A stretch of 64,000 nucleotides of DNA from a virus (IMGVR_UViG_3300001199_000001:5404-69403); one strand, 5' to 3'. Positions 10,173 to 63,678 are shown, counted from the stretch's first letter. Made by a program: numbers and translations. Notes: generated by a model not told the origin, from the letters alone.

Positions 10173-10366
10173 CACGCGTCTCTGATGATCTTGTAGTGGG
10201 TCGGCTCTTCGTCGACCTCGACCTTATGATCGTCCTCGGCGTGGCCGATCTGCCAGAAATCACCGTTCCAGTGGCCGACCATCACCAGCCCGGATTCTTC
10301 GTTCAAGAGAAGACGCGTACTGCCGTCTTTGGCTGCGTCGTCGATCATGATGAAATCTTCGGTCAA
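10172..10366 (-). CDS. hypothetical acidic protein
   Basis: 64 aa ORF. Confidence 0.45.
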   Translation of the reverse strand: MTEDFIMIDDAAKDGSTRLLLNEESGLVMVGHWNGDFWQIGHAEDDHKVEVDEEPTHYKIIRDA

Positions 10367-17634: not shown

Positions 17635-17663
17635 ACAATAGGACTAGGACAAGCTACTGTCAA
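17635..17663 (-). promoter_or_regulatory. sigma70-like promoter TTGACA-N17-TATTGT, 6 nt before ATG (leaderless)
   Basis: minus-strand TTGACA (plus 17658-17663), -10 TATTGT (plus 17635-17640), ATG at 17628. Confidence 0.5.
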
Positions 17664-20149: not shown

Positions 20150-20533
20150 TTATCCCGATGTCAACACATTATCACGTCCCCGCATCAACCGCATGAGCAC
20201 CGCGCGCAGGGCTGATTGCTCGTAAGGCTTCTGAAGGAAGGGCAGGGTCTGATCCGGGACATTCTCCTTGTTATAACCGGTTGACAGCACAAAGGGGATT
20301 CCACGTCCTTGGAGTGCAGTAGCTACCGGGCAGCTATACACTCCGTTCAGGTTGAGGTCGAGAACCGCCATGTCTATCGACTCACTCTCGATGATCGCGA
20401 GAGCCTGCTCGACGCGTGCTGCGGGACCTATGACCTTGCAACCAAGGTCGGCTAACATGTCTTCCAGCACCCAGGAAACCATGAGTTCGTCCTCGACTAC
20501 GAGGACGCGGCGACCCAACAGCGGGCTAGTCAT
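20150..20533 (-). CDS. single-domain response regulator (CheY-like receiver, LovR-like)
   Basis: RVLVVEDELMV...VIGPA...IDMAVLDLNL...PFVLSTGY receiver motifs. Confidence 0.8.
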   Translation of the reverse strand: MTSPLLGRRVLVVEDELMVSWVLEDMLADLGCKVIGPAARVEQALAIIESESIDMAVLDLNLNGVYSCPVATALQGRGIPFVLSTGYNKENVPDQTLPFLQKPYEQSALRAVLMRLMRGRDNVLTSG

Positions 20534-21602
20534 TGGGGCTACGTCCATGACCCTTCGGAAGGGGCATAACGACTTCACACGAAACGCCGGATGGATCGTA
20601 ATCCAATCGGACTTCGCCGTTCAACTCTTGGGCAAGGCCGCGCTCGATAAGGCGAGAACCGAAGCCTTTGCGGGTGGGCTGCACGAGGCGCGGTCCGCCG
20701 CTTTCCTTCCACAGTAGTCGCATCCATTCGCCATCGGCTCGACATTCAACGCCCCAGGACATAGTAACCCGCCCGTCGTCTACCGAGAGTGCGCCATATT
20801 TTGCCGAGTTGGTGGCTAGCTCATGGAAAACCATGGCCAGAGACAAAGCCGCCTTAGGCCGCAAGCGGATATCGGCCTTGGCCTCTAAAGTGAAGCGTTC
20901 CTTTCGCTGATCGTGTAAGCCAAACGGTTCTAGGATAAGGTCGACCACGTTACGCAGCACCACACGGCCCCAACTCGCGCTGCCAAGCAGGCTATGGGTT
21001 TTCGACAACGCGAGGATGCGACCTTCAAACAGTGCAAGAACTTTGCCATCTACGATGCCCCGTAAAGTCTGCCTAGCTATCGCCAGCACGGTTGCGAGCG
21101 TGTTCTGGGTGCGATGGTCTAGTTCATTCAGAAGAAAGCGCAGACGATCTTGCTCCTTCTTGTGGCGCGTAGTGTCCACAAAGGAGGCGAAATGTTGAAC
21201 GACCTCCCCCACTTCGTTCTTGACAGGACTAATGAACACGGTGGCCCACAATACGCTGCCGTCCTTGCGACAATAGCGTATCTCCGTGTCGTGGCCTTCG
21301 CCGTCGTCACGCTCAAAATCGACTTTGATAGCCTCCAACATATCTGGTGCGCCCCCCGGCGCCATCAAGGAGTTAAAGGCCTGCCCAAGTACTTCGCCTC
21401 GACTGTATCCAGTGAGAGCCAAAAAGCTGTCATTAGCGAAAATGAGCGGGTTTCCCGCTGCCTTGGCGTCCGTGAACACCATAGCCATTCGAGTCTGCTC
21501 TGCGGCCACGACAAACGGTCCAAGCTCATCCTTGAACTCTTGAACAACGGCTTCTGCTTTGGCCTGCGCGTTGGCGGGCGTCTTGTGTTGTTCTTCATCC
21601 AT
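20526..21602 (-). CDS. LOV-type PAS domain / HWE (HisKA_2) histidine kinase, LovK-like, lacking the photoactive cysteine
   Basis: GNPLIFANDSFLALTGYSRGEVLGQAFNSLMAP (LOV core with GRNCRFLQG replaced), ...YCRKDGS..W; ELDHRTQNTLATVLAIARQT HWE H-box; C-terminal ATPase. Confidence 0.75.
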   Translation of the reverse strand: MDEEQHKTPANAQAKAEAVVQEFKDELGPFVVAAEQTRMAMVFTDAKAAGNPLIFANDSFLALTGYSRGEVLGQAFNSLMAPGGAPDMLEAIKVDFERDDGEGHDTEIRYCRKDGSVLWATVFISPVKNEVGEVVQHFASFVDTTRHKKEQDRLRFLLNELDHRTQNTLATVLAIARQTLRGIVDGKVLALFEGRILALSKTHSLLGSASWGRVVLRNVVDLILEPFGLHDQRKERFTLEAKADIRLRPKAALSLAMVFHELATNSAKYGALSVDDGRVTMSWGVECRADGEWMRLLWKESGGPRLVQPTRKGFGSRLIERGLAQELNGEVRLDYDPSGVSCEVVMPLPKGHGRSPND

Positions 21603-27450: not shown

Positions 27451-28518
27451 TTACCTGACAGCAGTCAACACATTTGGGTTGGGCGCGGTGCGTCTCTGTG
27501 CGTTCGTGTAAGTGAACGGCGCTGTGACTTTTTGCGGATCGCGCGTGACGGGATAGCCCGTAATTTCGGTCGGCCATTGGGCAACCTTATATACCCGCAT
27601 CGAGCGGCGTGTACGACCCGCGACGAAGTCGTTCCAAGCCGTACTAATCAACCCGAACCAAGTGTCCACGTTGAGTGACGAACCGCGACGCAGATTGAGC
27701 GTAACATTGCGCAGCGCTAGGATCGGACTGCCCTTTTCGAGTTCCGCCCCCGACGAAAGCTTGGCAAGAAATTCCGACCACTTGTCGGCATACTCGCCGG
27801 ATGCTGTCGCCATCCAGCCGACCGCGCTGAGCGCCGACATCGAGACTGGCGGTCTGGCGGTATCGATTTTGGAGACGATCTGCTGGATTTCGGGGTGTTG
27901 GCGTACGAAATCGAGCATTTCGTTCTTACTGATCGTATTGTTCCGTGTAGGCAGCAACTGGTTCCACGTGATGATCAGGCGGACCGCAGCGGCGACCTTG
28001 GTCGCTTGGACGATGCCAGCGCCGCTGAGCGTGTCGGAGGCGCTGCGCTTGGCGCCTTGGTCCAGGGTGGAGAAAGTGTCTTCTTCGAGACCGCGAACGA
28101 CCATCATGCGAACCGGGGTCTTGGCGAGGAGGACGGCGGTGAGGCGGTGTTGACCGTTCAGGAGGCGACCGTTGCTAGCAAATTGAATGGGCTCGCCATT
28201 CATCTTCCACATGCCCATGCTCATTTGCCGGGCGAGAGATTCGACATGTTTGCGTCGAATAGGGCGGTTGCCCCAATTGGTGGTCGACAGATACTGATCG
28301 GCGACCTCCGGAGTGATAATTTCGTCCGACCACGAAAGGTGGGATGCGACGTGAACTGATTTGGACTTCGCAGCGGCCATGCCGTTACCTCCTGAGTTGA
28401 TGGTTTCTAACTCATAGTCGCCTTCGTTTCCCGTTGTCAACTCATTAGTGACAGCCTCGATGAACTGAGATTGGGGAGGCTTGGTCCGCCTCGAAAAGAT
28501 CAAATCCATTAGACTCAT
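27451..28518 (-). CDS. ParB-like nuclease domain (ParBc/DUF262-like) protein
   Basis: NGRLLNGQHRLTAV motif resembles DGQ(Q/H)R of ParB/DUF262. Confidence 0.5.
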   Translation of the reverse strand: MSLMDLIFSRRTKPPQSQFIEAVTNELTTGNEGDYELETINSGGNGMAAAKSKSVHVASHLSWSDEIITPEVADQYLSTTNWGNRPIRRKHVESLARQMSMGMWKMNGEPIQFASNGRLLNGQHRLTAVLLAKTPVRMMVVRGLEEDTFSTLDQGAKRSASDTLSGAGIVQATKVAAAVRLIITWNQLLPTRNNTISKNEMLDFVRQHPEIQQIVSKIDTARPPVSMSALSAVGWMATASGEYADKWSEFLAKLSSGAELEKGSPILALRNVTLNLRRGSSLNVDTWFGLISTAWNDFVAGRTRRSMRVYKVAQWPTEITGYPVTRDPQKVTAPFTYTNAQRRTAPNPNVLTAVR

Positions 28519-29630
28519 ACAACCACCCCTCCGTTGGCTGGGTTTTCCCGCACGACGCCGGTCCGTTCGTTGGGCGGGAAACAGAGAGAATAATGCAGAC
28601 CGGTGAAACGATATTCGAGGCGGGCGATGCCGTTGACCTCATTGGGTAGGCCCCTGGTCAAAAGACGCGTTCCGAAGGATGTTTTTTTAGGCCGTTCGAC
28701 ATACGGTCCGCCGCTCTCGTCCCAGCCCAGGCAAATCTCATTTTCACTGACGTGGACGCTGAGATTGACTGCGCCGTTGTATTCCGCGCTCCACGCCCCG
28801 TGCTTGGCGGCGTTAGTGGCCAATTCATGTAAGGCCATGCCAATCGACACCGCGTAATTCGGGTGAAGTTCGATATCCTTGCCGACCACCGTATAAACCT
28901 TGCCGTAAGGTGCGAGCAGGCGGTCGACCAACTCCCGGAAAAACACATGCGACCAGTGATGCTCGACTAGCAGATTATGGGTTTGCGAGAGCGCCATGAG
29001 ACGCTTCTCGAACGTCATCGCGAACTGCTCCTTCGACTCCGCCGCGCGCAAGGTCTGCTGGGCGATGGACTGCACCGACGCGAGTGTGTTCTTGACGCGG
29101 TGGTTCAGTTCGTCGATCAGCAGTTGCTGCCTACGATCATGCTCCTTCAGCGCAATCATCTCGTCCGATTTCTGCTGTAGCGCTAGGTAGGCGGCTTCCC
29201 GGTCACGCAACGCTTCGTCCTTCGCTCGAATCTGGTTTTCGAGCATTGAGGGAGAGGGTATCGCAAGCAGTTGCGGCGTCAAGGGCATCAACATTAATGC
29301 CGTAATCACTGACACTGAGGCGGTGACAGCCTTGAGCAAGGCCTCCACTCCGTAGTGTGGGTTCCACAGCGTCCAGATGGAAAAGAAGTGGGTCGTGCCG
29401 CAGAGCAGGATGAACGACACGAACAGCCAGCCCATCCACCCAAAGCTCAAACCCCTCCGCTTCAATAAGAAATAACCGATGGCGAACGGAATCGAATAAT
29501 ACGCCAGCCCGATAAGCACGTCGGAAGCGACATGGACAATGAGGATGTCAGGGCGCCATAATAAGCAGAGCCCGTGGGGATTTAGAAACTCGGAATCGAA
29601 GAAATATCGAATCCGTTCAATGATATTCAT
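28515..29630 (-). CDS. membrane-anchored HWE (HisKA_2) sensor histidine kinase
   Basis: N-terminal multi-TM domain; ELNHRVKNTLASVQSIAQQT H-box; C-terminal ATPase. Confidence 0.75.
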   Translation of the reverse strand: MNIIERIRYFFDSEFLNPHGLCLLWRPDILIVHVASDVLIGLAYYSIPFAIGYFLLKRRGLSFGWMGWLFVSFILLCGTTHFFSIWTLWNPHYGVEALLKAVTASVSVITALMLMPLTPQLLAIPSPSMLENQIRAKDEALRDREAAYLALQQKSDEMIALKEHDRRQQLLIDELNHRVKNTLASVQSIAQQTLRAAESKEQFAMTFEKRLMALSQTHNLLVEHHWSHVFFRELVDRLLAPYGKVYTVVGKDIELHPNYAVSIGMALHELATNAAKHGAWSAEYNGAVNLSVHVSENEICLGWDESGGPYVERPKKTSFGTRLLTRGLPNEVNGIARLEYRFTGLHYSLCFPPNERTGVVRENPANGGVVV

Positions 29631-45455: not shown

Positions 45456-45766
45456 TACTGTGGTTCTTTTGTCGATTTAACTTGGATGGCGTGAAAGCGG
45501 CGTTCCAGGGGCTTCATCAGATTCTTGATGAGATCGTCGTTCGGTCGGTAGACGAGTTTGAAGCGCTCCGAGCAGAAACATTCGTCGTCTAACGAAACTT
45601 CCTTTAAAGTGACTCCTATGCCGGTGCAGTGATCGCCGTGGGCCGCACAGCCGTCATACATGGCGTCTGGCCATATCTCGGCAACGGTATAAAGCGTCTT
45701 AGTGTCGACCCCGCCGGTTGCATCCTCGGCAAGACATTTAACAAAATCCCCGACGATCAAACTCAT
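45455..45766 (-). CDS. tandem paralog family protein (copy 1)
   Basis: ATGA coupling; MSLIVGDFVKCL...CSERFKLVYRPNDDL. Confidence 0.55.
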   Translation of the reverse strand: MSLIVGDFVKCLAEDATGGVDTKTLYTVAEIWPDAMYDGCAAHGDHCTGIGVTLKEVSLDDECFCSERFKLVYRPNDDLIKNLMKPLERRFHAIQVKSTKEPQ

Positions 45767-48153: not shown

Positions 48154-48348
48154 CCGAGCCTTCTTATTGATCTAGGTGCCCGATGGACGGCGCGACAACG
48201 AGGGCTGTTCTCTCAGAACATCTTCGTGGTGCAGAGACGCCCCTCTAGGCGCGCCATCCATCGGATAAAGTGACACATACGCCTCTGCGCCCCTCGTGTC
48301 AATAATCCTGACACGGAAATCCAGCGAGGCTGTCCCAAGTCCGAATCC

Positions 48349-48373
48349 TTGACAGATTCCACTTAATGTGACA
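48349..48373 (+). promoter_or_regulatory. conserved late-region element TTGACA-N7-CTTAATGTGACA (copy 1), upstream of portal gene
   Basis: same element at 56751 and 57832. Confidence 0.45.
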
Positions 48374-48446
48374 GAAGGTGGAGGTTGAGGCACAGGTTTA
48401 ACATTCGGGGCCGCCTCGTAACTCCCGAAATTCCGTTGGAAAATCA

Positions 48447-50246
48447 ATGTCCGGACTCGCTCCGAACTCCTCGAATTATCAAAGAGTTTCACGCGCCGTC
48501 GATCAGGCCGTCCATCTGCTTGTCCACCCCGAATATGAGTACTGGCTTCCGGAATGGCGGAAGATCAGGGACGCTCTGCGTGGCCAAAAGGAGATCAAGC
48601 AGAAGTCCGAGAGCTACCTGAAGCGTATGAAGGGGATGGACGACGAGGACTACGAAATCTATCTCGACCGCGCCTTGTTCTACAACATGACCGCGCAGAC
48701 CCTGAACGGCATGATCGGTCAGGTTTTCCGGCGCGAGCCCATCGTCCGCAACCTGCCGGACAAATTTAAGAACGCTGTCCGTAAGTTCGCTAAAGACGGA
48801 ACCAGCCATATCGGGCTGGCCAAGACCAGCATGGGCGAACAGCTATCGCTGGCTCGTTTTGGCATTCTCGTCGATGCGGCGGCTTCCGTACAATTGGAAA
48901 GCCCGTCTTCGTACGCCGTCGGCTACCAGACAGAAGATATCCTTGATTGGACCGTTGAAGAGGTCGACGGATTTTATCGCCCGACACGCGTCCTGCTGCG
49001 GGAATATGTCCGCGACGACTCGTTGTCGGCGAGCAATGCGCCGAGCGATACGGTCTCCCGCCGTGGAGCCGGTCCCCGCGTCAATGTGTCTAAAGCACGG
49101 GCTGGCATGCAGCCGAAACGCTCGTACACGAACTTCCAATATAAGGTGATCTACCGGGAACTCCTGCTGATCCCGCATCCTCGTCACCCGCAATTCGAAC
49201 GTGTGTACGTCCAGCGTCTTTATGACACAGACCCGCAGTCAGCCCCATCGTCCGAAGTCGTTCCTGTCATTCGCGGCGTGCCGCTGCCGTTCATCCCCTT
49301 CCAGTTTTTCGGCTCGCGCACGAACACCGCTGATATTGAGCCGCCGCCGCTAAACGACATTGTCGATATTAACCTGTCGCACTACCGGACCTACGCTGAG
49401 CTTGAGTACGGTCGTACCTTCACGGCCTTGCCAGTCTATTATGCGCCGGGCGGTAACGACGAAGGGGCGTCCGCGTACCATATCGGCCCCAATATGGTTT
49501 GGGAGGTTCCGCCGGACGGGTCCGAGCCGGGCATCCTTGAATATAAAGGCGAAGGCCTGAAGGCGCTTGAAAAAGCGCTGGAACAAAAAGAACAGCAGAT
49601 CGCCTCCATCGGCGGTCGTCTGATGCCCGGTGCGTCGCGGTCGATCTCTGAGTCGAACAACCAGACTGCGCTACGTGAATCAAATGAACAGTCCTTGCTT
49701 CTCAACGCCATCCAGGCCTGTGAAGAGGGCTTTGCTGAAGTCATTCGCTGGTGGCTGATGTTCCGTGACGTGCCGCTGATCGAGACGCAGGGCCTCCGTT
49801 ACGAGTTCAACACCCAGTTCCTGTCTACGCCGATTGGCGCCCGCGAACTGCGCGCCATGCAGCTTATGTACAAAGAAGGCATCATCACTGACCAAATCTA
49901 CTACGAGTTCCTTAAGAAGGCCGAGGTCGTGCCGTCATCGTGGACCTTCGAAGAATACCAAAAGGCCCGCAAGGACCCGAACAGCTTCGTCAACAACCCC
50001 GACGCCCAAGCCCGTCAACGCGGTTATTCCGACCGCAAGCAGGAACTTGGCGTGGAGTCGACCGAGTTCGAGCAAGACATCCTCGACCGTGAGATCGAGA
50101 TCGAAGAAGAAAAGCTTGAAATTGCCGCCAAGGTTGGTTCGACCACCGTCGCAGCTTCCCGCAAGCTGGGCGATCCCGAGCAAGCTGAACCGGCGAAGGC
50201 TGATAAACTTTCTGCCAAGAAAGCCGCAGCAAAACCTAGCAAGTAG
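48447..50246 (+). CDS. putative portal protein
   Basis: 599 aa, first gene of late plus-strand block, followed by scaffold and capsid; no Walker A. Confidence 0.5.
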   Translation: MSGLAPNSSNYQRVSRAVDQAVHLLVHPEYEYWLPEWRKIRDALRGQKEIKQKSESYLKRMKGMDDEDYEIYLDRALFYNMTAQTLNGMIGQVFRREPIVRNLPDKFKNAVRKFAKDGTSHIGLAKTSMGEQLSLARFGILVDAAASVQLESPSSYAVGYQTEDILDWTVEEVDGFYRPTRVLLREYVRDDSLSASNAPSDTVSRRGAGPRVNVSKARAGMQPKRSYTNFQYKVIYRELLLIPHPRHPQFERVYVQRLYDTDPQSAPSSEVVPVIRGVPLPFIPFQFFGSRTNTADIEPPPLNDIVDINLSHYRTYAELEYGRTFTALPVYYAPGGNDEGASAYHIGPNMVWEVPPDGSEPGILEYKGEGLKALEKALEQKEQQIASIGGRLMPGASRSISESNNQTALRESNEQSLLLNAIQACEEGFAEVIRWWLMFRDVPLIETQGLRYEFNTQFLSTPIGARELRAMQLMYKEGIITDQIYYEFLKKAEVVPSSWTFEEYQKARKDPNSFVNNPDAQARQRGYSDRKQELGVESTEFEQDILDREIEIEEEKLEIAAKVGSTTVAASRKLGDPEQAEPAKADKLSAKKAAAKPSK

Positions 50247-50259
50247 AGTCACTTTAAGT
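50247..50259. repeat. AGTCACTTTAAGT motif copy 1
   Basis: immediately after portal stop codon. Confidence 0.7.
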
Positions 50260-50655
50260 TAGGATACTGTGATGCCGAAAACGACAAAGAAGGCAGCCGC
50301 AAAAGTCACCAAACCATCCAAGCGGATGCCCAAAACAAAGAAGTGCTGATGAAAAAGTTAACCCCGGTTTTCAACCCGAAACGACCCGCAGTGCTCTGCG
50401 CTAGCGTCAGTGTCATCCCCTATCTCATCGGCCTTCGTTTCGGACGAGTCGCACGTCCGAAGACCTAATCTCCCGCGCGACCTCCCCTGCGGTCTTTGCC
50501 GGGTATGAGCAGGAAAAACCGATGACGATGCGACGTTCTAACTTTTCCCTGTGTGTTGGGACTTAGTGAACGCGGGTGCGCGGGGAGGGCTAAAACCCTT
50601 CATGTAGCTCGTGAATCTTTATCAACCCGGACTTCAACTTTGAAAGGACTTCCTT

Positions 50656-50856
50656 ATGGAACCTGAAGCCCCCAAGCCTTGGTATGCCCAGCACGCCCTG
50701 GCCCTTATCACTGTCGTTGCCCTTGTGCTCGGCGGTATCGGTTACTCGATCTCTCCTGAAGACCAGCAGGTCTTGGCAGGCGCCGCTGGCGGCCTGACCG
50801 CTCTGGTCACGCAAATCGTCGGCGTCGTTAAAAACGTCCTCGCGTCTAAGAAGTAA
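50656..50856 (+). CDS. small membrane protein
   Basis: GAAAGGA RBS; two hydrophobic segments. Confidence 0.55.
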   Translation: MEPEAPKPWYAQHALALITVVALVLGGIGYSISPEDQQVLAGAAGGLTALVTQIVGVVKNVLASKK

Positions 50857-50910
50857 TAACAGGCGGACTCCCACCCGACAGGGTCCGCCCAACTATTGGA
50901 AATTTCCCCG

Positions 50911-51249
50911 ATGCCTGAGCGTCCACAACGCCGTCACCAGACTAGGCCCCAGGCCTTCACAATCCAGATTGTCCCACTCCCGGACGGTACCTTCGCGGCA
51001 TCCTCGCGTGAGTTATCCGGCGGATTCGTCAAAGGTGAGACCATTGCTGCCGTACTGACGGACATGGGGATCGTACTGGAAGGAAAAGCAGCCGCTCAAG
51101 CTACCAGAATCAGTGAACGCCGCGCCGCGCGCGCAAGCCGAAAATCGGGAGCAGACGCTACCGTGACGGTGGACGAAACGCCGCAGGTTGTCGTCCATTC
51201 GAAGAACCCGAAAAACCCTAAGGCCGGTCCCCCCGACCCTGTAAATTAA
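50911..51249 (+). CDS. HicB-like (UPF0150/RNase H-like fold) domain protein with basic tail
   Basis: FTIQIVPLPDGTFAASSRELSGGFVKGETIAAVLTDMGIVLE matches HicB yt..i..e.dG.y.a.vPelpGc.tqGdT.eEal.n. Confidence 0.55.
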   Translation: MPERPQRRHQTRPQAFTIQIVPLPDGTFAASSRELSGGFVKGETIAAVLTDMGIVLEGKAAAQATRISERRAARASRKSGADATVTVDETPQVVVHSKNPKNPKAGPPDPVN

Positions 51250-51257
51250 GGATTCTA

Positions 51258-52034
51258 ATGACCACCCTTAGGCGTTACGCGGACCATGCTGATTGGCCTA
51301 TAGCAGACTACCGTTGCACCTACCCCGGCCGATTTATGCCAAACGGCGGTGGTTCGATCATTCTCGGTGATCTCGATAGCCGGGGACGACATTATGCCGC
51401 TGCCGGTGGCCAGTATATCGAAGTCGATTTATCTAGGACGATTTTGTCATTAACCGACGCCGTGGGACTAGCGGATTTTATCCGCGATCTCACGCTTCAA
51501 ATGGGCAACATCTATCCGTCTATCGAACTCTATAGCGGTAATTTTTACGATTTCCGGAACATCGAGGATAATGAGATCGACATCGAGGATGTCGCTCATT
51601 CGCTCTCGATGCAGTGTCGGTTTGGCGGCCACTGTTCGGAGTTCTATTCGATTGCCGAGCACTCGGTCAGGGCATCGTTCATCGATCCCGATCATGACGC
51701 CTTTGACAAACTTATGCACGACGCCGCCGAGAGTGTGGCGGTTGATTTGCCTACTCCGTTCAAACGTCTCCTGCGGGATTACACCCGAATTCTAGAGCGC
51801 ATCGAGGCAAACTTCGCAGATGTCTTTGGCCACCGGCACCCGCTCCCTGAGTCAGTAAAACATGCAGACCTGACCATGCTCGCGACGGAGAAGCGCGATC
51901 TTAAGAAGACGAACAATCAGTGGGGAATGCTCGAAGGCGTGCCGACCCTGCCCGACATCATCCAGCCGTGGACTCAGAAGCAAGCGAAACAAGCCTTTTT
52001 GGATCGCTACGAGCAACTGAAACACACGGCGTAA
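51258..52034 (+). CDS. HD-domain phosphohydrolase
   Basis: VAHSLSMQCRFGGHC..FYSIAEHS...LMHDAAE...DLPTP. Confidence 0.65.
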   Translation: MTTLRRYADHADWPIADYRCTYPGRFMPNGGGSIILGDLDSRGRHYAAAGGQYIEVDLSRTILSLTDAVGLADFIRDLTLQMGNIYPSIELYSGNFYDFRNIEDNEIDIEDVAHSLSMQCRFGGHCSEFYSIAEHSVRASFIDPDHDAFDKLMHDAAESVAVDLPTPFKRLLRDYTRILERIEANFADVFGHRHPLPESVKHADLTMLATEKRDLKKTNNQWGMLEGVPTLPDIIQPWTQKQAKQAFLDRYEQLKHTA

Positions 52035-52048
52035 CAAGAGAGAAAATT

Positions 52049-52240
52049 ATGAGTGAACTGTTTTTGATTGGCTTTGATGCAGGCTCCGAGAATCGGCTCA
52101 AGGAACGCATCATTCGCATGGGTGGTGAAGTCCATCACTTTGAAGTCCGGTCGGCGACCATGAAGGTCACCGGCATCACCCGGCGCGATCTCGCGTCACT
52201 GCCGGGTGTCCGTTACGTCCAGAACGATGGGCAACGCTGA
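52049..52240 (+). CDS. hypothetical protein
   Basis: start MSELFLIGFD. Confidence 0.45.
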   Translation: MSELFLIGFDAGSENRLKERIIRMGGEVHHFEVRSATMKVTGITRRDLASLPGVRYVQNDGQR

Positions 52241-52647
52241 TGTCTAAGACCAAGGAAGATTGCAAAGTGAAGTTCGAACAGAACATCAACTTCAAGGGCT
52301 TTAGGGCCGATCCTGTGTTCGATAACACACGGACGCTGGAGGCTTGTGCGACGAAGTTCAACGCACAGGAACTCGCCAAGGCCTGGGCTCAGCCTGTACC
52401 TACTTACGATTATCGTAACATCAATATCGTCGTGAATGTAACCGCAGCCACGGCAAGTCTTGAGCAGATGAAGATCGCCTTTGCAAAAACCGCTGATTTT
52501 GCCAAAGCCAATCGCATTAAGGCAGCCGAAGCTTTGTTGGCAGATAGGGCAAAAGCGACTTTTTACGCGAAAGAGGGAAAATCCACTCCCGAGTTATCGA
52601 TGTTCGATAAAGCCCGCGCGACGCTTAAAAACAAGCACCGCTCATAA
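52240..52647 (+). CDS. hypothetical protein
   Basis: 135 aa ORF. Confidence 0.55.
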   Translation: MSKTKEDCKVKFEQNINFKGFRADPVFDNTRTLEACATKFNAQELAKAWAQPVPTYDYRNINIVVNVTAATASLEQMKIAFAKTADFAKANRIKAAEALLADRAKATFYAKEGKSTPELSMFDKARATLKNKHRS

Positions 52648-52656
52648 AAATAAAAG

Positions 52657-52691
52657 TCCCGGACCGCCTTGGGTTTTAACGGTCCGGGACC
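52657..52691 (+). terminator. perfect 11-bp stem hairpin (possible terminator without U-tract)
   Basis: GTCCCGGACCG-ccttgggttttaa-CGGTCCGGGAC. Confidence 0.45.
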
Positions 52692-52743
52692 CTCAAGAAG
52701 CAGTGGCTGGCAACCCTTTCACCGTCCACTGTCAACACATTAT

Positions 52744-53206
52744 CATGGCTGTCATCAGACGCAAGCGTAAACGGAAGAAGACGGCTATCGCAGTTCGCTT
52801 CTCCCATCGGACACATCCCGCGAAGATGTACAAGGCGCCGCCCGGTGTTTGTAGCTGGTGTGCGAGCGACATCTTGACCCTCGAAGGCAAGATCAACGCG
52901 AACAAGAAGTTCTGCGGACGCATCTGCGAAGATTCCTATAAAATCCACACTGATTCAAAGGCTTGGCGGAAAGAGGTCTGGCAGCGTGATCGCGGGTTCT
53001 GCCGCGAATGTGGCAAGAAACATCCACTCGACGGTAAGGAGTGGGAAGCTGATCACATCCAACCTTTGTTCATTTCCTGCGGCGATTGGAACTTCTGGTC
53101 TCCTGAGAATGGCGCGGTCTTGTGTAAGTCACCTTGTCATAAGATTAAGACCGAAGCTGATCGTCAGAAGTATTTAACTCCAAGACCAGTAAAACGCCGT
53201 CGTTGA
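52744..53206 (+). CDS. HNH endonuclease (second)
   Basis: CRECGKKH...EADHIQP...NGAVLCKSCH..K. Confidence 0.75.
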
Positions 53207-53428
53207 AGAAGAAATTTTCCAGTAGTCAACACCTTGTTTGTGCGAATTCTTGACAAACCAATTGGTTTGGTGTAGAAGGCATGCAAGCTGCAATAACAAA
53301 GAAACAAATTGCAGTGTCCCGACAAGACGACCTTACGCCCAATACCGACGTGGGTGGGTCTCTTTCTCGTCCGCGACGGGTCGTCGCCCAGCACTGGGGT
53401 CCAGTGTTTCCCTCTGAGAAAGTATACA

Positions 53429-54220
53429 ATGCCTGTTTTGACTTTTGATGCTCTTGAAGATGTGCCGGAAGGCCTTCGAGATTTTGCGAAAGACCATGGT
53501 GACGGCAAAATCACCGTGAACGTTGTTCCAGAAACGAAGCTTAGCGAGTTCCGGGATAACAACATCAACGTCTCCAAGGAGCGCGACCAGCTTCGGGAAG
53601 CCGTTGACAGACTGAAGAACATCGTGGGTGAAGACCCCGAAGCGTTCGAAAAGGATTTGGCGGAACTCCGCGTGACCCGAGATCGGGTGGCTGCCGGGGA
53701 ACTGCGTGAAAGTCGGGCTCTGGAAGAAGCCATCGGCAAGCGTACTGAAGAGATGCGCAAGAAGTTTGAAGAAGAGCTTCAAGGCCGTGGTCGCGAACTA
53801 GGTGCTTGGAAGGATAAATATGGAACACTGGACCGGCGCTACCGCGACGAAAAAGTGATCCAAGCGGTGAAGGATGCGGCTACGTCCCCGGACTCTGGGG
53901 TGCAGCACAAGGCCATCAGCGATGTCGCCAAACGGGCTCTCGAAGTCTTCAAGGTGATGGACGATGGACGCATCATTCCGATGAACGGTGACGTGCCGAT
54001 CTACGGAACCAACGGGGTTGACCCGATGACTCCGAACGAATGGCTCGCCAAGCTGAAGGACGAAGCTCCGTACTTCTTCATGGGCACCCAAGGCGGTGGC
54101 GCTGGCGGTGATCCCGGTAAAAAGACGGGTCTCGGCATGTCGTATGCCGATCTTTCGAAGCTCTCGGCAACTGAAAAGTTGGCGCTGGCGAACAAAGAAG
54201 GCCGTCCTTTCGGCAAGTAA
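53429..54220 (+). CDS. putative scaffolding protein
   Basis: coiled-coil, acidic, immediately upstream of capsid gene; start MPVLTFDAL. Confidence 0.5.
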   Translation: MPVLTFDALEDVPEGLRDFAKDHGDGKITVNVVPETKLSEFRDNNINVSKERDQLREAVDRLKNIVGEDPEAFEKDLAELRVTRDRVAAGELRESRALEEAIGKRTEEMRKKFEEELQGRGRELGAWKDKYGTLDRRYRDEKVIQAVKDAATSPDSGVQHKAISDVAKRALEVFKVMDDGRIIPMNGDVPIYGTNGVDPMTPNEWLAKLKDEAPYFFMGTQGGGAGGDPGKKTGLGMSYADLSKLSATEKLALANKEGRPFGK

Positions 54221-54223
54221 CTG

Positions 54224-54236
54224 AGTCACTTTAAGT
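54224..54236. repeat. AGTCACTTTAAGT motif copy 2
   Basis: 3 nt after scaffold stop; part of palindrome GTCACTTtaagtgaAGTGAC. Confidence 0.7.
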
Positions 54237-54387
54237 GAAGTGACTGGACTAAAAATTTGTGGGGTTGGATTCGTCCAACCCCGCTCCAAACAACCCTTGG
54301 GGACGCTGGACGCCCGAGGGGGAAGCCCGAGGCGGGGGGCCTGCCTCCTCAACCAGTCTAGCGTAACCCTTGAGGAGAATTCAGCTT

Positions 54388-55323
54388 ATGGCTGCTCTCA
54401 CACTGTTGCAAGCTGCCGAACAGGCGATGGGCAACGAAGAAATCAAGCGCGCCGCGATCATCGAACTGTTCGCTCAGCCTGACCTCCTTCGTGTCCTCCC
54501 GTTCATGGATATTCCGGGCAGCGCCTATTCGTATATCCAAGAAGGTCAGCTTCCGGGCGTCGCCTTCCGTGGTTACAACGAGTCTTACTCGACCACCACG
54601 GGCGTCGTTAACCCGCAAGTTGAACGCCTCCGCATCGCGGGCGGCGATCTGGATGTGGACAAGGCCCTCCTGAAGACGCACGGCGCGGGCGTTCGCTCGA
54701 CGCAAGAGCGTATGAAGGTTAAGGCCCTCTCGCTCTACATCTCGGGCAAGATGATCAACGGCGACTCCGACGTTGATCCGCGTGAATTCGACGGCCTCCG
54801 TAAGCGCATCGTCGGCGATCAGAAGATCGCTGCTGGTTCGACCGGTGGTGGCGACGCGCTGTCCCTGTCGGTTCTGGATGAAGCTATCGACGCTGTCGAC
54901 GGCGCCACCCACCTGATCATGTCCAAGAAGATGCGTAACCGCCTCTCGGCTGCTGCGCGTAACACCGGCACGACCGGCTTCATGGTCTGGGACAAGGACG
55001 AGTTCGGCAACCGTGTCGCTTTCTACAACGACATTCCGATCCTCGTGACTGACTACGACGACACCAACACTCAGGTCATCGCTTTCAACGAAGCATGCCC
55101 CGGTGGCGGTTCGGCGGTCGGTACGTCGATCTACGTCGTCAACATGAGCGACACCGGCGTTTGCGGTCTGCAAAACGGCGTCATGGAAGTCACCGACCTT
55201 GGTGAAGTCCAAGACAAGCCGGTTCTGCGCACCCGCGTTGAGTGGCTGATCGGTCTGGCCGTGCTCCACGGTCGTGCCGTTGCTCGTATCTGGGGCATCA
55301 AGGACGCGGCGGTGACGGCTTAA
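54388..55323 (+). CDS. putative major capsid protein
   Basis: GAGGAG RBS; 311 aa following scaffold; strong terminator two genes downstream. Confidence 0.55.
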   Translation: MAALTLLQAAEQAMGNEEIKRAAIIELFAQPDLLRVLPFMDIPGSAYSYIQEGQLPGVAFRGYNESYSTTTGVVNPQVERLRIAGGDLDVDKALLKTHGAGVRSTQERMKVKALSLYISGKMINGDSDVDPREFDGLRKRIVGDQKIAAGSTGGGDALSLSVLDEAIDAVDGATHLIMSKKMRNRLSAAARNTGTTGFMVWDKDEFGNRVAFYNDIPILVTDYDDTNTQVIAFNEACPGGGSAVGTSIYVVNMSDTGVCGLQNGVMEVTDLGEVQDKPVLRTRVEWLIGLAVLHGRAVARIWGIKDAAVTA

Positions 55324-55375
55324 TTGCCGTCACTACCCTGCCTTCGTTAGGAACCTTTTTTAGGAAACCCAGAAA

Positions 55376-55816
55376 ATGGAAAGCACTGTTAAGCACCAGT
55401 ACGACGGCGATCTCGCCCTTCGTGCGCCCGGTTTGGCCGCTCTTACGGCTGACACCGCTCTGACCAAGATCGACCTGCACCGCCTGACGGCGGGACGTGG
55501 CGATCTGGAGAACCGCTATGGTCTCGGTTCGTTCGACGTTGTCGTTGTTGTCGCTTCTATGGACACCACGACCGGCGACGAAGCCTACGCCCTGGAATTC
55601 ACGACCTATGACTCCGCTGGAGCCAACCCGGTCGTCCAGGCGTCGCACACCGTGACCTCGGCTGATGTCGCCAAGACGCGCGTCTTCACGTTCCACCCGG
55701 AATCGCTGAAGCTTGCGGACGCCGACGCTGCCAAGTTCTCGATCAACGTGAATGTCGGCGGCACGACCCCGATCATCTCGTTGTATGCCTTTGCGGCCCC
55801 CCACTCCCACGCGTAA
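55376..55816 (+). CDS. putative head-associated/decoration protein
   Basis: 146 aa following capsid gene. Confidence 0.4.
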   Translation: MESTVKHQYDGDLALRAPGLAALTADTALTKIDLHRLTAGRGDLENRYGLGSFDVVVVVASMDTTTGDEAYALEFTTYDSAGANPVVQASHTVTSADVAKTRVFTFHPESLKLADADAAKFSINVNVGGTTPIISLYAFAAPHSHA

Positions 55817-55859
55817 TGGCTGACGCTTCGGCGTCATCCTAGTGGATGTGGTAATAAGG

Positions 55860-55890
55860 AAGGCCCCGCTGAAAAGCGGGGCCTTTTCTT
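55860..55890 (+). terminator. rho-independent terminator
   Basis: GGCCCCGC-tgaaaa-GCGGGGCC followed by TTTTCTT. Confidence 0.8.
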
Positions 55891-55904
55891 ATGCGTAAGA
55901 GGTG

Positions 55905-55951
55905 TGAAGCCGGGAGGGGTCTTAACGGGGGGGCGACATCCTCCCGGCTTC
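55905..55951. repeat. long inverted repeat hairpin
   Basis: GAAGCCGGGAGG...CCTCCCGGCTTC 12-bp stem. Confidence 0.5.
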
Positions 55952-56043
55952 AGTCTTCGGGCGGGCTGTTCGTGGGGGGCGAGCCTCAGCACCGACGACA
56001 TGTAGAACTTATTGAATTATACGTTTGTGGTCAACACAAAAAT

Positions 56044-56676
56044 TCAATCCGGTCCATTCAGTTTGACGACTTCCACCCCGTCGACATAGCCAATTGCGGC
56101 GTGGGCCTTAGCGATCACGTCCTCCAAGAGAACGGGGGCGTAACCGACCTGTTCCGCAGAGACGCAAACATATCTCGGATCGGGAACCCTCATGATCGAG
56201 GGCGGCGTCGCGAGGCCGTCGTAGATATCCTCGTCCACAGTGATCTGGTTGGTGTGCAGGTGGCCATGGATGTTAACCACGAACCGACCCAGGCACTGTT
56301 CATGGATTGGAATATGGCTCAGGATAGCGCGCGGGCCACCTTCTCCGTCTACGACCTTATAGCCGCGCACGTCCTCGAAGTATTTCAGATACTCCTTAGC
56401 GCCGAAGATATCGTGGTTGCCGGAAATCAGCACCAGTTTTCCATTCAGGCGCTCTAAGATTGGCAGAGCCCGCTTGTTTATAGCGACATCGCCGACAAGG
56501 TAGACACGGTCGTGCTCACCCGTGACTGCGTTCCACGCGGCCACCATCGCTTCATCCATTTCCTCGGGCGTGTCCCACGGGCGGACGGGAGAGCCGTCGC
56601 TCCGCATGAACTGTGTGATTCCCTTGTGGCCCCAGTGGGTGTCACCGATCACTCGCGCTCTGTCTTTTTTAGCCAT
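56044..56676 (-). CDS. calcineurin-like metallophosphoesterase
   Basis: VIGDTHWGH...LVGD...GNHD...IHGHLH motifs; opposite strand inside late region. Confidence 0.75.
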   Translation of the reverse strand: MAKKDRARVIGDTHWGHKGITQFMRSDGSPVRPWDTPEEMDEAMVAAWNAVTGEHDRVYLVGDVAINKRALPILERLNGKLVLISGNHDIFGAKEYLKYFEDVRGYKVVDGEGGPRAILSHIPIHEQCLGRFVVNIHGHLHTNQITVDEDIYDGLATPPSIMRVPDPRYVCVSAEQVGYAPVLLEDVIAKAHAAIGYVDGVEVVKLNGPD

Positions 56677-56750
56677 GAGACAGTTTCATCGATTTTTAGG
56701 AACTTGTCAACACCCGGCGTCAACTGCACTGACAAGCCGGGTCAGAATCA

Positions 56751-56775
56751 TTGACATCTTAACTTATTGTGACAC
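56751..56775 (+). promoter_or_regulatory. conserved late-region element TTGACA-N6-CTTATTGTGACAC (copy 2)
   Basis: 23 nt before GGAGG RBS of gene at 56798. Confidence 0.45.
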
Positions 56776-56797
56776 ACTCCCCTCATTGGAGGCGCGT

Positions 56798-57157
56798 ATG
56801 GCTGATCTGAACTACACCGTTTATGACAATGAAGACCTTCATCGTGACTTTCAACTGAAGGAAGGCGCGTCGGCTGAGGCCGCGACTGCGACTGATATCA
56901 CCGACAGCACGATTAGCGCTGAAATCCGGGACGAGACAAATACGCTCATCCTCCGGATGACATCGACAGACAACACTACGCTCAAGATTTTGGACGCAGA
57001 AGAAGGACGCTTCGGGTTTCGTATTGATCGCGAGCTTCTGCCGACGAACAAGAAGCTGTTGAAGTACGATGTGCTGATTACCGACGCAGATGGGTACACG
57101 CGTCGTCTCTGGGGCGGCAAGATTACTGTCAAGATAGGCGTCACGCAGGACACCTAA
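56798..57157 (+). CDS. hypothetical structural protein
   Basis: GGAGGCG RBS; 119 aa. Confidence 0.55.
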   Translation: MADLNYTVYDNEDLHRDFQLKEGASAEAATATDITDSTISAEIRDETNTLILRMTSTDNTTLKILDAEEGRFGFRIDRELLPTNKKLLKYDVLITDADGYTRRLWGGKITVKIGVTQDT

Positions 57158-57813
57158 TGCCTGACCTCCAGCCCATTATATTCCCGCCGAACACACCGAC
57201 GGTGGTCGTTTTTACGCAGGAACAAGGCTCGCTCATAGTCCTTATCCCGCAAGAACAACCGATTCTTGAGACGCCCGTTGAGGCGGTCACGGTCGTCGAG
57301 CCGGTCAACGACACGCAGCCGATCATCGTAGAAGCCGTGACACCCAATCTCATCGTGATTGAGCAGCCTATTACGACGGCTGTCATTACCGCAGGACCGC
57401 CAGTGATCGTCATTGCCGACGCCACCGGAGCCCAAGGACCGCGCGGCGATTCCGGCAACGTCGAGCGTTATCTTGTTGGCTCCTGGGATGGGCCGATGCC
57501 TTTCAGCACTCCTAGCGATCCTGAGTTCCTTTTCGCGGCGGATATCCCTACAGCGATGCGAATCAGGGCAGACGCTCCGAAGTCCTTTGCAAAAGCAAAA
57601 ACACCCGCCACGTCCAATGTCGTACTTGATGTCACCTTGAATGAGGTGGTCGTGGGCACACTAACCTTCGGTCCTGGTGATGAGGATGGTGTGTTTGTTA
57701 TTACTGATCAAGTAGACATGGTTGCAGGCGATCTTCTTGAAATTCCGGCTCCAACATCTGGCGACGCAACACTAGCCGACATACGGATCACCATCACTAC
57801 AGAACTAACCTGA
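57157..57813 (+). CDS. hypothetical structural protein (collagen-like GAQGPRGDSG segment)
   Basis: 218 aa; TAATG coupling. Confidence 0.55.
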   Translation: MPDLQPIIFPPNTPTVVVFTQEQGSLIVLIPQEQPILETPVEAVTVVEPVNDTQPIIVEAVTPNLIVIEQPITTAVITAGPPVIVIADATGAQGPRGDSGNVERYLVGSWDGPMPFSTPSDPEFLFAADIPTAMRIRADAPKSFAKAKTPATSNVVLDVTLNEVVVGTLTFGPGDEDGVFVITDQVDMVAGDLLEIPAPTSGDATLADIRITITTELT

Positions 57814-57831
57814 GTAAAGTCACCCGAATTC

Positions 57832-57857
57832 TTGACAAGCTCAACTTAATATGACAC
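57832..57857 (+). promoter_or_regulatory. conserved late-region element TTGACA-N7-CTTAATATGACAC (copy 3)
   Basis: upstream of 57922 gene. Confidence 0.45.
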
Positions 57858-57921
57858 AAGGAAGGCTCAATAGCCCGCTCTGGGCTCGCGATCCCGAACC
57901 GCACCCAAACAGGATTTTCCC

Positions 57922-58389
57922 ATGGCATCTGCTAAGCGCATGGTCACAGTTTACGACAAGAATGGTAAGTCGTATGTTGTTGATCACCTGAACGCTCTCG
58001 ATATGACGGCGTCACTAGGCTTCACCTATCAACCGGGCCGCAAGTTTGATTATCACGAGCCGCTGCCTTACGCTGGTAAGAACGTCGAGCTTCTGAAGAG
58101 AGACCCGCAGGGCAAGTCCCTGGCGCAGGGCATTCTTGACGGTATCCGGGACACTGAAGAAGCTGTCGTCGCTGACGACACCGATGAAGTGTTTGACGCC
58201 GGTAAGGACGTTGCACCTGAACCGGAATCGCTGGTCATTCCTTCGGTTGAAGTTGAAGTCAAGCCAGACACCACGCTTGTGATCCCGACAACGGACGAAG
58301 TCGAAGAAGTCGAGACACCTGCCTTTGAAATTCCGGTCATTGAAGCGGATGCCGAAGTTAAGCCGCGTAGCCGCACGAAGAAGGCCTAA
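57922..58389 (+). CDS. hypothetical acidic protein
   Basis: 155 aa ORF. Confidence 0.55.
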   Translation: MASAKRMVTVYDKNGKSYVVDHLNALDMTASLGFTYQPGRKFDYHEPLPYAGKNVELLKRDPQGKSLAQGILDGIRDTEEAVVADDTDEVFDAGKDVAPEPESLVIPSVEVEVKPDTTLVIPTTDEVEEVETPAFEIPVIEADAEVKPRSRTKKA

Positions 58390-58394
58390 TATCG

Positions 58395-58796
58395 ATGCCG
58401 GTCCTTTCATACGAAGTTCATGAAAATATCCTGAATTGGATGAAGGGCTCGGCGTTCCCCTCGGCTCCGGCGTCTCTGCGCTTGGCCTTGCTTACGGCAG
58501 AGCCTAATCCGGATGGTACCGGTATAGCGGAGCCCAACGGTGGTCACGGCTATGGTCGCCAAGTCGTTGCGTTCGGTGCGATCACGACGGACAACGGTAT
58601 CTCAACGATGAAGAATTCCGCTCCGGTGGTGTTCGGTCCAGCTTCTACTTCGGGCTGGGCGACCGCCACCCATGTCGGCCTCTTCTCCGTTGGGGGTGAC
58701 CTTCTTGCTTACGGTCCTCTGCCTGCGCAGCGCACGGCGCCGCTGGGCGATACCATTTCTTTCGGTGCTGAAGCCGTACAGATTCGTCTAAAGTGA
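58395..58796 (+). CDS. hypothetical structural protein (related to 59536..59937)
   Basis: shared LALLT..P..DGTG...G.....G...LFS pattern. Confidence 0.5.
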   Translation: MPVLSYEVHENILNWMKGSAFPSAPASLRLALLTAEPNPDGTGIAEPNGGHGYGRQVVAFGAITTDNGISTMKNSAPVVFGPASTSGWATATHVGLFSVGGDLLAYGPLPAQRTAPLGDTISFGAEAVQIRLK

Positions 58797-58808
58797 GTCA
58801 CTTTAAGT
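58796..58808. repeat. AGTCACTTTAAGT motif copy 3 (palindrome GTCACtttaaGTGAC)
   Basis: overlaps stop codon of 58395..58796. Confidence 0.7.
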
Positions 58809-59517
58809 GACACAAGATGCGAGCATTAGTTGGTCGGCGGGGGCATCATTCGTCGCCACCTCCAACAAGACTCACATTGCGCGGGTGGGCTGGTCAGCGG
58901 AGGCGGCATTTAGCGCCGCCCCTAATCAGACTTACGCCGCGTCCGTGATTTTAATTGCTGAAGGCGGCATCGAACCAAACGATGCCTATCTCGGCAAGCC
59001 TACCAGTATCGAACTACTGATGGAGACTGATGGCGCGTCCACCGTCTTCCCCGGCAGCTTCGCTTATATACAGGACGCGTCGACCTACGAGGTCGTCATG
59101 TTCTTCGAGATGGAAGGGAACGCTCACGGATCGTTGGTCGTGCCGTATGTGCAGGACACCGATGGTGGGAAACCTCCGAGACTTCTTGGACAACCTGTAG
59201 AGGGTCAGCCCGAAGCAGCCGAGAAGTTGTTCCGCTTTCACGCGGCTGATTCAGCTTACCGAATTTCGGAAGCTCGCAGTCGTGGGTGGGCGGACAGTCC
59301 GGCGACGGCGGATGCAGTCTTCACGCTTGAAAGAAAGCGCGGGATTACATCCACCACCGTAGCCACGGTCACTTTTTATGCAGGCGCCAGCGCCCCGCAG
59401 ATCGAAGTGATTGATGCGAGTGTGGTGGTCGGTGACCGTCTCATCTTCCACGCCCCGACTGTGCAAGACATCACACTTGCCAATCTGGTTGTGACTTTTG
59501 TTCTGATCTTCGCCTAA
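58807..59517 (+). CDS. hypothetical structural protein (GTG start)
   Basis: 236 aa ORF. Confidence 0.5.
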   Translation: MTQDASISWSAGASFVATSNKTHIARVGWSAEAAFSAAPNQTYAASVILIAEGGIEPNDAYLGKPTSIELLMETDGASTVFPGSFAYIQDASTYEVVMFFEMEGNAHGSLVVPYVQDTDGGKPPRLLGQPVEGQPEAAEKLFRFHAADSAYRISEARSRGWADSPATADAVFTLERKRGITSTTVATVTFYAGASAPQIEVIDASVVVGDRLIFHAPTVQDITLANLVVTFVLIFA

Positions 59518-59943: not shown

Positions 59944-59956
59944 AGTCATTTTAAGT
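59944..59956. repeat. AGTCATTTTAAGT motif copy 4 (variant)
   Basis: 6 nt after stop of 59536..59937. Confidence 0.65.
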
Positions 59957-59997: not shown

Positions 59998-60010
59998 AGT
60001 CATTTTAGGG
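59998..60010. repeat. AGTCATTTTAGGG motif copy 5 (degenerate)
   Basis: 5 nt before ATG 60016. Confidence 0.5.
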
Positions 60011-63665: not shown

Positions 63666-63678
63666 AGTCACTTTAAGT
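63666..63678. repeat. AGTCACTTTAAGT motif copy 6
   Basis: 60 nt after stop of third Gly-rich gene. Confidence 0.7.

Follow-up and report, generated by a model that had tools for sequence, protein, structure and literature searches.

Probable -35 plus extended -10 promoters before the structural genes of a giant phiCbK-like phage

The DNA described here is a 64,000-nucleotide (nt) stretch of one strand of a viral genome (IMGVR_UViG_3300001199_000001:5404-69403; hereafter the window), which comes from a giant 279-kb phage, a distant relative of the phiCbK-like phages of Caulobacter and Brevundimonas. Upstream of its structural genes recurs an element built around the hexamer TTGACA, and this element is our subject. 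Coordinates are counted from the first letter of the window; the scans covered the window and about 1.5 kb to its right, taken from a 71-kb Logan contig, out of the 279-kb parent. The structural genes lie on the plus strand. The portal gene (DUF4055, PHROG 145; 48447-50246) is the first gene behind the element at 48349, and the scaffold gene (53429-54220) and the major head protein gene (54388-55323) lie behind the element at 53250. A terminator-like hairpin, AAGGCCCCGC-TGAA-GCGGGGCCTT followed by TTCTT (55860-55885, plus strand), marks the end of this portal-to-capsid unit. Between the hairpin and the next element, at 56751, lies a phosphoesterase gene on the minus strand (56044-56676; PHROG 547, E = 8.5e-45), and the element itself is located within the 121-nt divergent gap beside that gene. 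Given the hairpin and the opposite-strand gene, rightward transcription must restart at 56751. Further head and head-tail genes occupy 56798-59517 on the plus strand: a PHROG 1084 member beginning at 56798, orf218, orf155 (155 residues, beginning at 57922 behind the element at 57832), the gene for a Gp80-like head protein, to which orf155 lies 5', and orf236.

Three copies of the element had been pointed out in a preliminary description of this DNA, which placed them before three late gene clusters and suggested either a promoter that depends on an activator or an alternative sigma factor, or an operator overlapping a promoter. Numbered by coordinate, these copies are TTGACAGATTCCACTTAATGTGACA at 48349, TTGACATCTTAACTTATTGTGACA(C) at 56751 and TTGACAAGCTCAACTTAATATGACA(C) at 57832; all three are present at the positions claimed, on the plus strand, and each is intergenic and 5' of a plus-strand gene (48447, 56798 and 57922, respectively). 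Counting both strands, the 64 kb hold TTGACA-N6-8-CTTAWTRTGACA three times, against 0.00 matches in 100 dinucleotide-preserving shuffles. Conservation among the window copies also reaches 5' of TTGACA, into a GAATY-N block that itself follows GTCn. By listing every TTGACA in the window, we found a fourth member at 53250, likewise on the plus strand, which has the upstream block and TTGACA without the CTTAAT 12-mer. Consistently, GAATYNTTGACA occurs four times in the window against 0.13 expected, always on the plus strand and in the late region.

How are these elements built? Promoter 1, before the portal gene (48338-48377, plus strand), consists of the block AGTCCGAATCC (48338-48348), the -35 hexamer TTGACA (48349-48354), a 17-nt spacer with the 3' part CTTAATG, a TG at 48369-48370 and the hexamer CAGAAG (48372-48377), and its start (+1) is predicted near 48384. 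Promoter 2, before the scaffold gene (53244-53279, plus strand), has the overall form gcGAATTC-TTGACA-N17-TAGAAG, with GAATTC at 53244-53249, the -35 hexamer at 53250-53255, TG at 53271-53272 and TAGAAG at 53273-53278, or else AGAAGG with an 18-nt spacer; its predicted +1 lies near 53286, and the same layout is found at the scaffold genes of phiCbK, Bajun and the metagenomic contig L009. Promoter 3, before the gene at 56798 (56740-56778, plus strand), comprises the block GGTCAGAATCA (56740-56750), the -35 hexamer (56751-56756), a 16-nt spacer ending in CTTATTG, TG at 56770-56771 and the hexamer CACACT (56773-56778); transcription is predicted to start near 56785, 3 nt 5' of a GGAGG ribosome-binding site (56788-56792). 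Promoter 4, before the gene at 57922 (57818-57860, plus strand), is composed of the block AGTCACCCGAATTC (57818-57831), the -35 hexamer (57832-57837), a 17-nt spacer ending in CTTAATA, TG at 57852-57853 and the hexamer CACAAG (57855-57860), with a predicted +1 near 57867. All four thus match TTGACA at 6/6 positions, with spacers of 17 (48349), 18 or 17 (53250), 16 (56751) and 17 nt (57832). An A stands at -11 in the three focal copies, and in the 53250 copy too if its spacer is read as 17 nt; the only -7 T among the window copies is that of the 56751 site (CACACT).

The preliminary description had stated that no canonical -10 element follows at 17 nt. This holds for the hexamer itself, but it overlooked the TG, which in each copy occupies exactly -15/-14. 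The repeated 12-mer would therefore be made up of CTTAAT or CTTATT, with which the spacer closes in an A/T-rich stretch, then the TG, a free base, and CA(C) at -12/-11(/-10).

Palindromes also lie at or close to these promoters. A perfect 16-bp palindrome, CAAACCAATTGGTTTG (53254-53269, plus strand), occupies the spacer of promoter 2 between the -35 hexamer and the TG, and is a candidate operator. Another, CGTGTCA-ataatcc-TGACACG (48295-48315, plus strand), is located 34 nt 5' of promoter 1, and the portal-upstream region of phiCbK holds the palindrome GTGTCAT-taacc-ATGACAC (L001 13590-13608).

We compared the portal-upstream regions of phiCbK, Rogue, Karma, CcrBL10, Colossus, CcrPW, C2, Bajun, Marchewka and Gurke and of the three metagenomic contigs L005, L009 and L010, which span 45-67% G+C. 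The same promoter layout precedes the portal gene in every one of them. Position is conserved before the portal gene in 11 lineages, before the scaffold gene in four and before the homologues of orf155/gp070 in four, and conservation in related phages, on which the preliminary description had let its proposal depend, is thereby found in 11 lineages. In the structural module of phiCbK, GTCGTGAWTC-TTGACA is present five times, before the portal gene gp042, gp047, gp056, the scaffold gene gp067 and gp070. The homologues of orf155 in L009 (15443, E = 2e-21), phiCbK (gp070, E = 9e-7) and Bajun (30208, E = 2e-4) each have a family promoter directly 5' of them, as has the window gene at 57922.

In an alignment of 15 promoters from the 11 lineages, the only invariant columns are TTGACA, TG and CA, with a nearly invariant C before TTGACA. 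A larger set of 25 promoters from the same number of lineages was anchored on the TG, which makes its TG columns circular; a statement independent of the anchoring is that every TTGACA with the upstream block has a TG in that register. At random, a TG would fall into one of three registers with a chance of about 0.15. Counted from TTGACA, the TG follows after 13-15 nt. The -35 hexamer is TTGACA in 23/25 promoters (TTGACT and TTGACG in the other two), and the spacer measures 17 nt in 21 of them, 18 in three and 16 in one. A pyrimidine and then a purine stand at -17/-16, giving YRTGn, and the base after the TG, at -13, carries 0.07 bits (A9 T7 C5 G4), as for the free base of a TGn motif. Downstream, -11 is A in 19/25 promoters, while a T at -7 is found in only 7/25. 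The scaffold promoters of phiCbK and Bajun have TAGGTT and TAGGGT in the register in which the window copies have CAGAAG, CACACT and CACAAG, which fixes the position of the -10 hexamer. Among the phiCbK group the first eight bases of the spacer differ (accgggcg, accgcacg, gaagcccg) between flanking blocks that are fixed, as would be expected if two sub-elements were constrained separately. CTTAAT/CTTATT is specific to the lineage of the window; relatives have TTAACCA, GTTTCA, ATTATA or ATTTCA as the A/T-rich part. Like the window, L009 carries a version of its own more than once, at two promoters (GGATTATATGACAT, GGATAATATGACAC), and its GGATAATATGACAC nearly equals the 57832 site.

We propose, at a probability of about 0.7, that the three copies and the 53250 member are promoters of the middle or late structural operons, most likely read by the host's primary, sigma-70-type holoenzyme and belonging to a '-35 plus extended -10' class. 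Their location, their orientation and their recurrence in related phages lend good support to the earlier suggestion of a promoter. An alternative sigma factor, as had also been suggested, is not needed, because the invariant bases are those read by the primary-sigma holoenzyme. In such a promoter TTGACA, often after TC, would serve as the -35 hexamer, and across a spacer of 16-18 nt the TG at -15/-14 would form the extended -10 (YRTGn), with the next base free. The CA would then fill -12/-11 in a -10 hexamer that is weak and for the most part has no -7 T (CAGAAG, CACACT, CACAAG), its poor match being compensated by the perfect -35 hexamer and the TG, and transcription should begin about 7 nt past it. 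Conceivably, the A/T-rich GAATY block 5' of the -35 hexamer acts as an UP-like or activator-contact element. The sequences themselves show the anatomy, the spacing, the position and the conservation in 11 lineages, and from these we infer the sigma factor, the start sites and any dependence of late timing on a helper; candidates for such a helper might be the host's CarD or a phage protein that binds RNA polymerase, as in phage T5. Activator dependence of the family is possible because of the weak -10 hexamer, the C at -12 and the conserved block 5' of the -35 hexamer.

Several observations weigh against this proposal. A near-consensus -35 hexamer together with a TG predicts early, constitutive activity and by itself gives no account of middle or late timing. 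The -10 hexamers match TATAAT at 3/6 positions (4/6 for TAGAAG), and -12 is C in 18/25 promoters, which is odd for a primary-sigma promoter; a generic sigma-70 scanner leaves the focal sites uncalled. To these is added the circularity of the TG columns already mentioned. Moreover, the three 12-mers of the window are near-identical beyond what TG and CA need, and they match at 10/12 positions the string CTTAAAGTGACT, the reverse complement of the AGTCACTTTAAG element found at late-gene junctions, which hints at an extra DNA-binding factor.

How does this family relate to known systems? Sigma-70 promoters of the extended -10 type ('TGn', or '-16 region TRTG') are known in Escherichia coli and Bacillus subtilis. 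The family resembles them in the TG at -15/-14, the free -13 position, the pyrimidine-purine step at -17/-16, the A at -11 and the spacer of 16-18 nt. It departs from the classical form, which usually combines a good TATAAT-like hexamer with a dispensable -35 element, in that the -35 hexamer is perfect and the -10 hexamer poor, with C at -12 and the -7 T mostly missing. Alphaproteobacterial sigma-70 promoters commonly lack the -7 T and have been proposed to depend on CarD (PMC8407463, PMC7703639). The likeness to promoters of this CarD type extends to a strong -35 element, a weak -10 hexamer without -7 T and a likely Caulobacterales-type host, but the CarD-type promoters of the host keep a T at -12, and neither an extended -10 TG nor an upstream GAATY block has been described in them.

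A precedent for late timing under the primary sigma factor is offered by T5, a large lytic siphovirus. In T5 every temporal class uses the host sigma-70 polymerase at strong promoters that differ in ancillary segments, the mechanism of the switch being unknown (PMC7472727), and among the structural and regulatory genes of phiCbK-like phages are relatives of T5 genes, including a homologue of A1 (PMC3556154). The classes of T5 differ mainly in the discriminator, whereas here the block 5' of the -35 hexamer and the spacer/-10 region are class-specific, and the host is alphaproteobacterial.

What we describe is a conserved family of probable promoters, previously undescribed and of a known type, rather than a new sort of genetic element. 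In Caulobacter, phiCbK has long served as a model phage, and time classes from RNA sequencing (RNA-seq) have been published for it. A definition of its middle or late promoters was not found in the literature searched, and a literature search for the promoter strings returned unrelated primers only. The comparison provides a testable group-wide consensus for structural promoters, tc-TTGACA-N14-TG-n-CA with an A/T-rich block 5' of the -35 hexamer, together with predicted start sites and a contrast to the canonical TTGACA-N17-TAnnnT promoters that the phage carries on its other strand. It also makes the question of late timing specific: does the holoenzyme suffice alone, does the C at -12 call for a helper, and does the upstream block recruit a factor?

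Promoter-like sequences of other forms occur as well. On the minus strand of the window, candidates of the form TTGACA-N17-TAnnnT/C without a TG have their -35 hexamers at 17663, 20164, 26058, 39108, 41680 and 43977, and also at 52735; they are likely early or middle promoters, and those at 20164 and 52735 have the upstream string GATAATGTG-TTGACA in common. In the terminal-repeat early intergenic regions of phiCbK (L001 831-906, 3078-3345, 3793-3934 and 4328-4381) another promoter-like form is found, tTGTTAAC-N10-11-CTAGGGTC (or CTATGGTC, CTAGTGTC), which differs from the structural promoters and is probably that of the published CtrA-associated promoters.

Might a phage regulator read the same DNA? 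CTTAAW-GTGAC, at about -24 to -12, could be the site of a phage DNA-binding protein that activates or represses the promoters and that also binds AGTCACTTTAAG or GTCACTTTAAGTGAC. This is compatible with a sigma-70-type promoter, and we consider it unlikely, though the most serious of the alternatives. The putative regulator site would be CTTAATGTGAC, and the predicted targets of a shared regulator would be CTTAATGTGACAC and GTCACTTTAAGTGAC. The idea draws on a second repeated element, AGTCAYTTTAAG, which is found on the plus strand at late-gene junctions (50247-50258, 54224-54245, 58796-58811, 59944-59955, 59998-60009 and 63666-63677). Its first ten bases, AGTCAYTTTA, are found seven times in the window where 0.13 are expected, one of these copies being on the minus strand (45605-45614). 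At 58797 the element takes the form of a perfect palindrome, GTCACTTTAAGTGAC, whose right arm runs on as TGACACAAG, the same as at the 57832 site. The copy at 54224 pairs with a second copy as a hairpin, beside another strong hairpin (z = -5.8), and several copies adjoin terminator-like hairpins (54261, 59971 and 63703). This second element is possibly a site of processing, of termination control or of a regulator.

At the scaffold-capsid junction, L009 has the palindrome AGTCATCTTAAC-TT-GTTAAGATGACT (10289-10314) and phiCbK has GTCACGAAAC-N4-GTTTCGTGAC (L001 25826-25847 and 25965-25988). The arms of these palindromes resemble the promoter blocks of their own phage at least as closely as those of other phages: over the six variable bases, arm and own block agree at 5/6, 4/6 and 5/6 positions, against two to four of six for the blocks of other phages. 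This would be a weak hint of a shared, co-evolving DNA-binding factor, and the covariation comes from three phages with one tie, Bajun having no such palindrome. The three window copies are, in addition, more alike than TG and CA alone require. Yet across lineages only TG and CA are invariant within the block, and the fourth family member, at 53250, lacks CTTAAW-GTGAC. TGACAC shows no enrichment in the window, with 29 copies where 26.4 are expected, and an operator made of TGACAC half-sites was accordingly rejected. Of the operator suggested earlier, what stands, weakly, is the resemblance of the block to the arm of the late-region palindrome; enrichment of the half-site does not bear it out, and the covariation is drawn from three phages.

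A protein that might fill this role is encoded at 16694-17317 on the minus strand, adjoining the genes for ribosomal proteins L20 and L35. It has 208 residues with three tandem helix-turn-helix (HTH) repeats that match Sigma70_r4_2, HTH_23 and Mor, and weakly matches PHROGs families annotated 'late transcriptional activator', which speaks for a regulator. However, the phiCbK group lacks a homologue of it, and the phage collection contains homologues from two Brevundimonas phages only (34% identity); as a family-wide late activator it was therefore rejected. Less likely still than a shared regulator as such is a fast-evolving one that acts at CTTAAW-GTGAC and also at AGTCACTTTAAG or GTCACTTTAAGTGAC and couples late firing with read-through or processing. 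Were this so, the site should covary with the protein, as CTTAAW-GTGAC in the window, GWTAAK-ATGAC in L009 and GGTTTC-RTGMC in phiCbK.

An alternative or phage-modified sigma factor would require another register, in which the real -10 hexamer is TAATGT, TATTGT or TAATAT and the TTGACA 8-9 nt upstream is an activator box, like the MotA box of T4 middle promoters. The three strings are good TAnnnT hexamers, and the C at -12 that primary-sigma recognition entails is atypical. Nevertheless, we regard this as improbable: the same positions read TAACCA, TTATAT, TTTCAT and GTTTCA in relatives, with no common -10 consensus, while TG-n-CA does not vary there, nor does the 14 nt that separates it from a perfect TTGACA, and in the scaffold promoters it is the downstream register that holds a good hexamer (TAGGTT). 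Among the open reading frames (ORFs) of the window, no gene for a sigma factor or an RNA polymerase was found, and none has been reported for phiCbK; a phmmer search with approximate sigma region 4 and NarL queries gave no match.

Regulation by the host cell cycle, through CtrA or through GcrA acting on CcrM-methylated GANTC (as GAATC) by the -35 hexamer, is more improbable again. In six relatives TTAACCA-TG stands at the position of the block, and TTAACCAT, found in the Caulobacter and Brevundimonas relatives, is the CtrA half-site. In the window, however, the focal blocks read TTAATG, TTATTG and TTAATA, the two copies of TTAACCAT lie away from the focal sites (18587 and 46495), and the full box TTAA-N7-TTAA was found zero times where 0.5 are expected. 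CtrA sites have been bound experimentally in the terminal repeats of phiCbK-like phages (PMC9437464). The CtrA-box promoters of that study belong to the same phage group and likewise have conserved promoter-associated motifs tied to host biology, but they are early, sit in the terminal repeats and use a motif absent from the window; CtrA regulation was rejected on these grounds.

For GcrA, it is suggestive that most phiCbK-like phages encode a homologue (PMC3556154), phiCbK among them, that GANTC is depleted overall and that GAATC or GATTC abuts the -35 hexamer in phiCbK (5/5), most Bajun copies, L010 and the window sites 48349 and 56751. GcrA/CcrM promoters are, moreover, sigma-70 promoters with a cofactor that acts at the open-complex step, and have GANTC beside the promoter (PMC4647560), as some family members do. 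Responsive GANTC sites, though, are situated around -20 or between +2 and +30 and read YGAKTCK (PMC4647560), whereas GAATC lies at about -42 to -38 in the 48349 and 56751 sites, and the TGAATCT of phiCbK is AGATTCA on the other strand, the lowest-ranked GcrA variant (PMC4647560). GANTC is also missing from the window sites 57832 and 53250 (GAATTC) and from eight other lineages, L009, L005, Colossus, CcrPW, C2, Marchewka and Gurke among them. With position and flanks that misfit the published sites and most lineages lacking GANTC there, the GcrA/CcrM reading was dropped.

Least probable is recognition by the heat-shock sigma factor (sigma-32, RpoH; consensus -35 TTGAAA and -10 CCCCATnT). It is brought to mind by the bases that predominate at -12 (C) and -11 (A), and by the CAT that many relatives have at -12 to -10, about 14 nt past a TTGA-type -35 (TTGAAA-N13-14-CCCCATnT). 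It was rejected because neither consensus element is present, the -35 hexamer being TTGACA rather than TTGAAA, the -15/-14 bases TG rather than CC and the window copies CAG and CAC rather than CAT. A structured RNA or DNA element (riboswitch, hairpin promoter or Rfam family) was ruled out by folding of the three focal sites, which gave no stable structure beyond shuffled controls (z-scores -0.29, +0.97 and +0.57), and by 0 matches of Rfam covariance models to the window.

The placement of the phage among phiCbK-like viruses comes from protein comparison. At the DNA level, matches to known phages are confined to the capsid gene (Caulobacter, Brevundimonas and roseobacter phages, 72-79% identity). 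The portal protein is 58-59% identical to that of phiCbK and its relatives (subfamily Dolichocephalovirinae); it is carried on a 278,859-bp contig, the nearest other relative is 64% identical, and no relative closer than this in portal identity was found in the collections searched. An IMG/VR search for closer relatives returned only known phiCbK-like phages, and when viral and metagenome contigs were scanned for the exact patterns, the hits were unrelated loci without homology to the late proteins. The G+C content of the window is 56.5%.

The host is likely a Caulobacterales-like alphaproteobacterium, to judge from a ribosomal protein gene. The window encodes L20 (17681-18034, minus strand; Pfam E = 9e-42) and L35 (18062-18301, minus strand; E = 2.5e-19) in adjacent genes. 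The phage L20 is about 80% identical to bacterial L20s, the nearest named ones being from Brevundimonas and Caulobacteraceae (75-79%), which points to such a host. The CcrM motif GANTC is depleted: the window has 149 sites, where a third-order model predicts 213 and a first-order model 334. In the phiCbK region the shortfall is larger (46 sites, 67-148 expected), whereas in Colossus the third-order model shows little or none (110 sites, 116 expected).

Two other features of the window deserve mention. A very basic ORF of 25 codons (MPKTTKKAAAKVTKPSKRMPKTKKC; 50272-50349, plus strand) begins 14 nt past the AGTCACTTTAAG element located behind the stop codon of the portal gene. The window further encodes two HWE-family histidine kinases (20529-21602 and 28518-29630, both on the minus strand), one with PAS domains and the other with an N-terminal domain resembling the one in the plant ethylene receptor (ETR1_N, E = 5.5e-36); such sensor kinases are unusual cargo for a phage.

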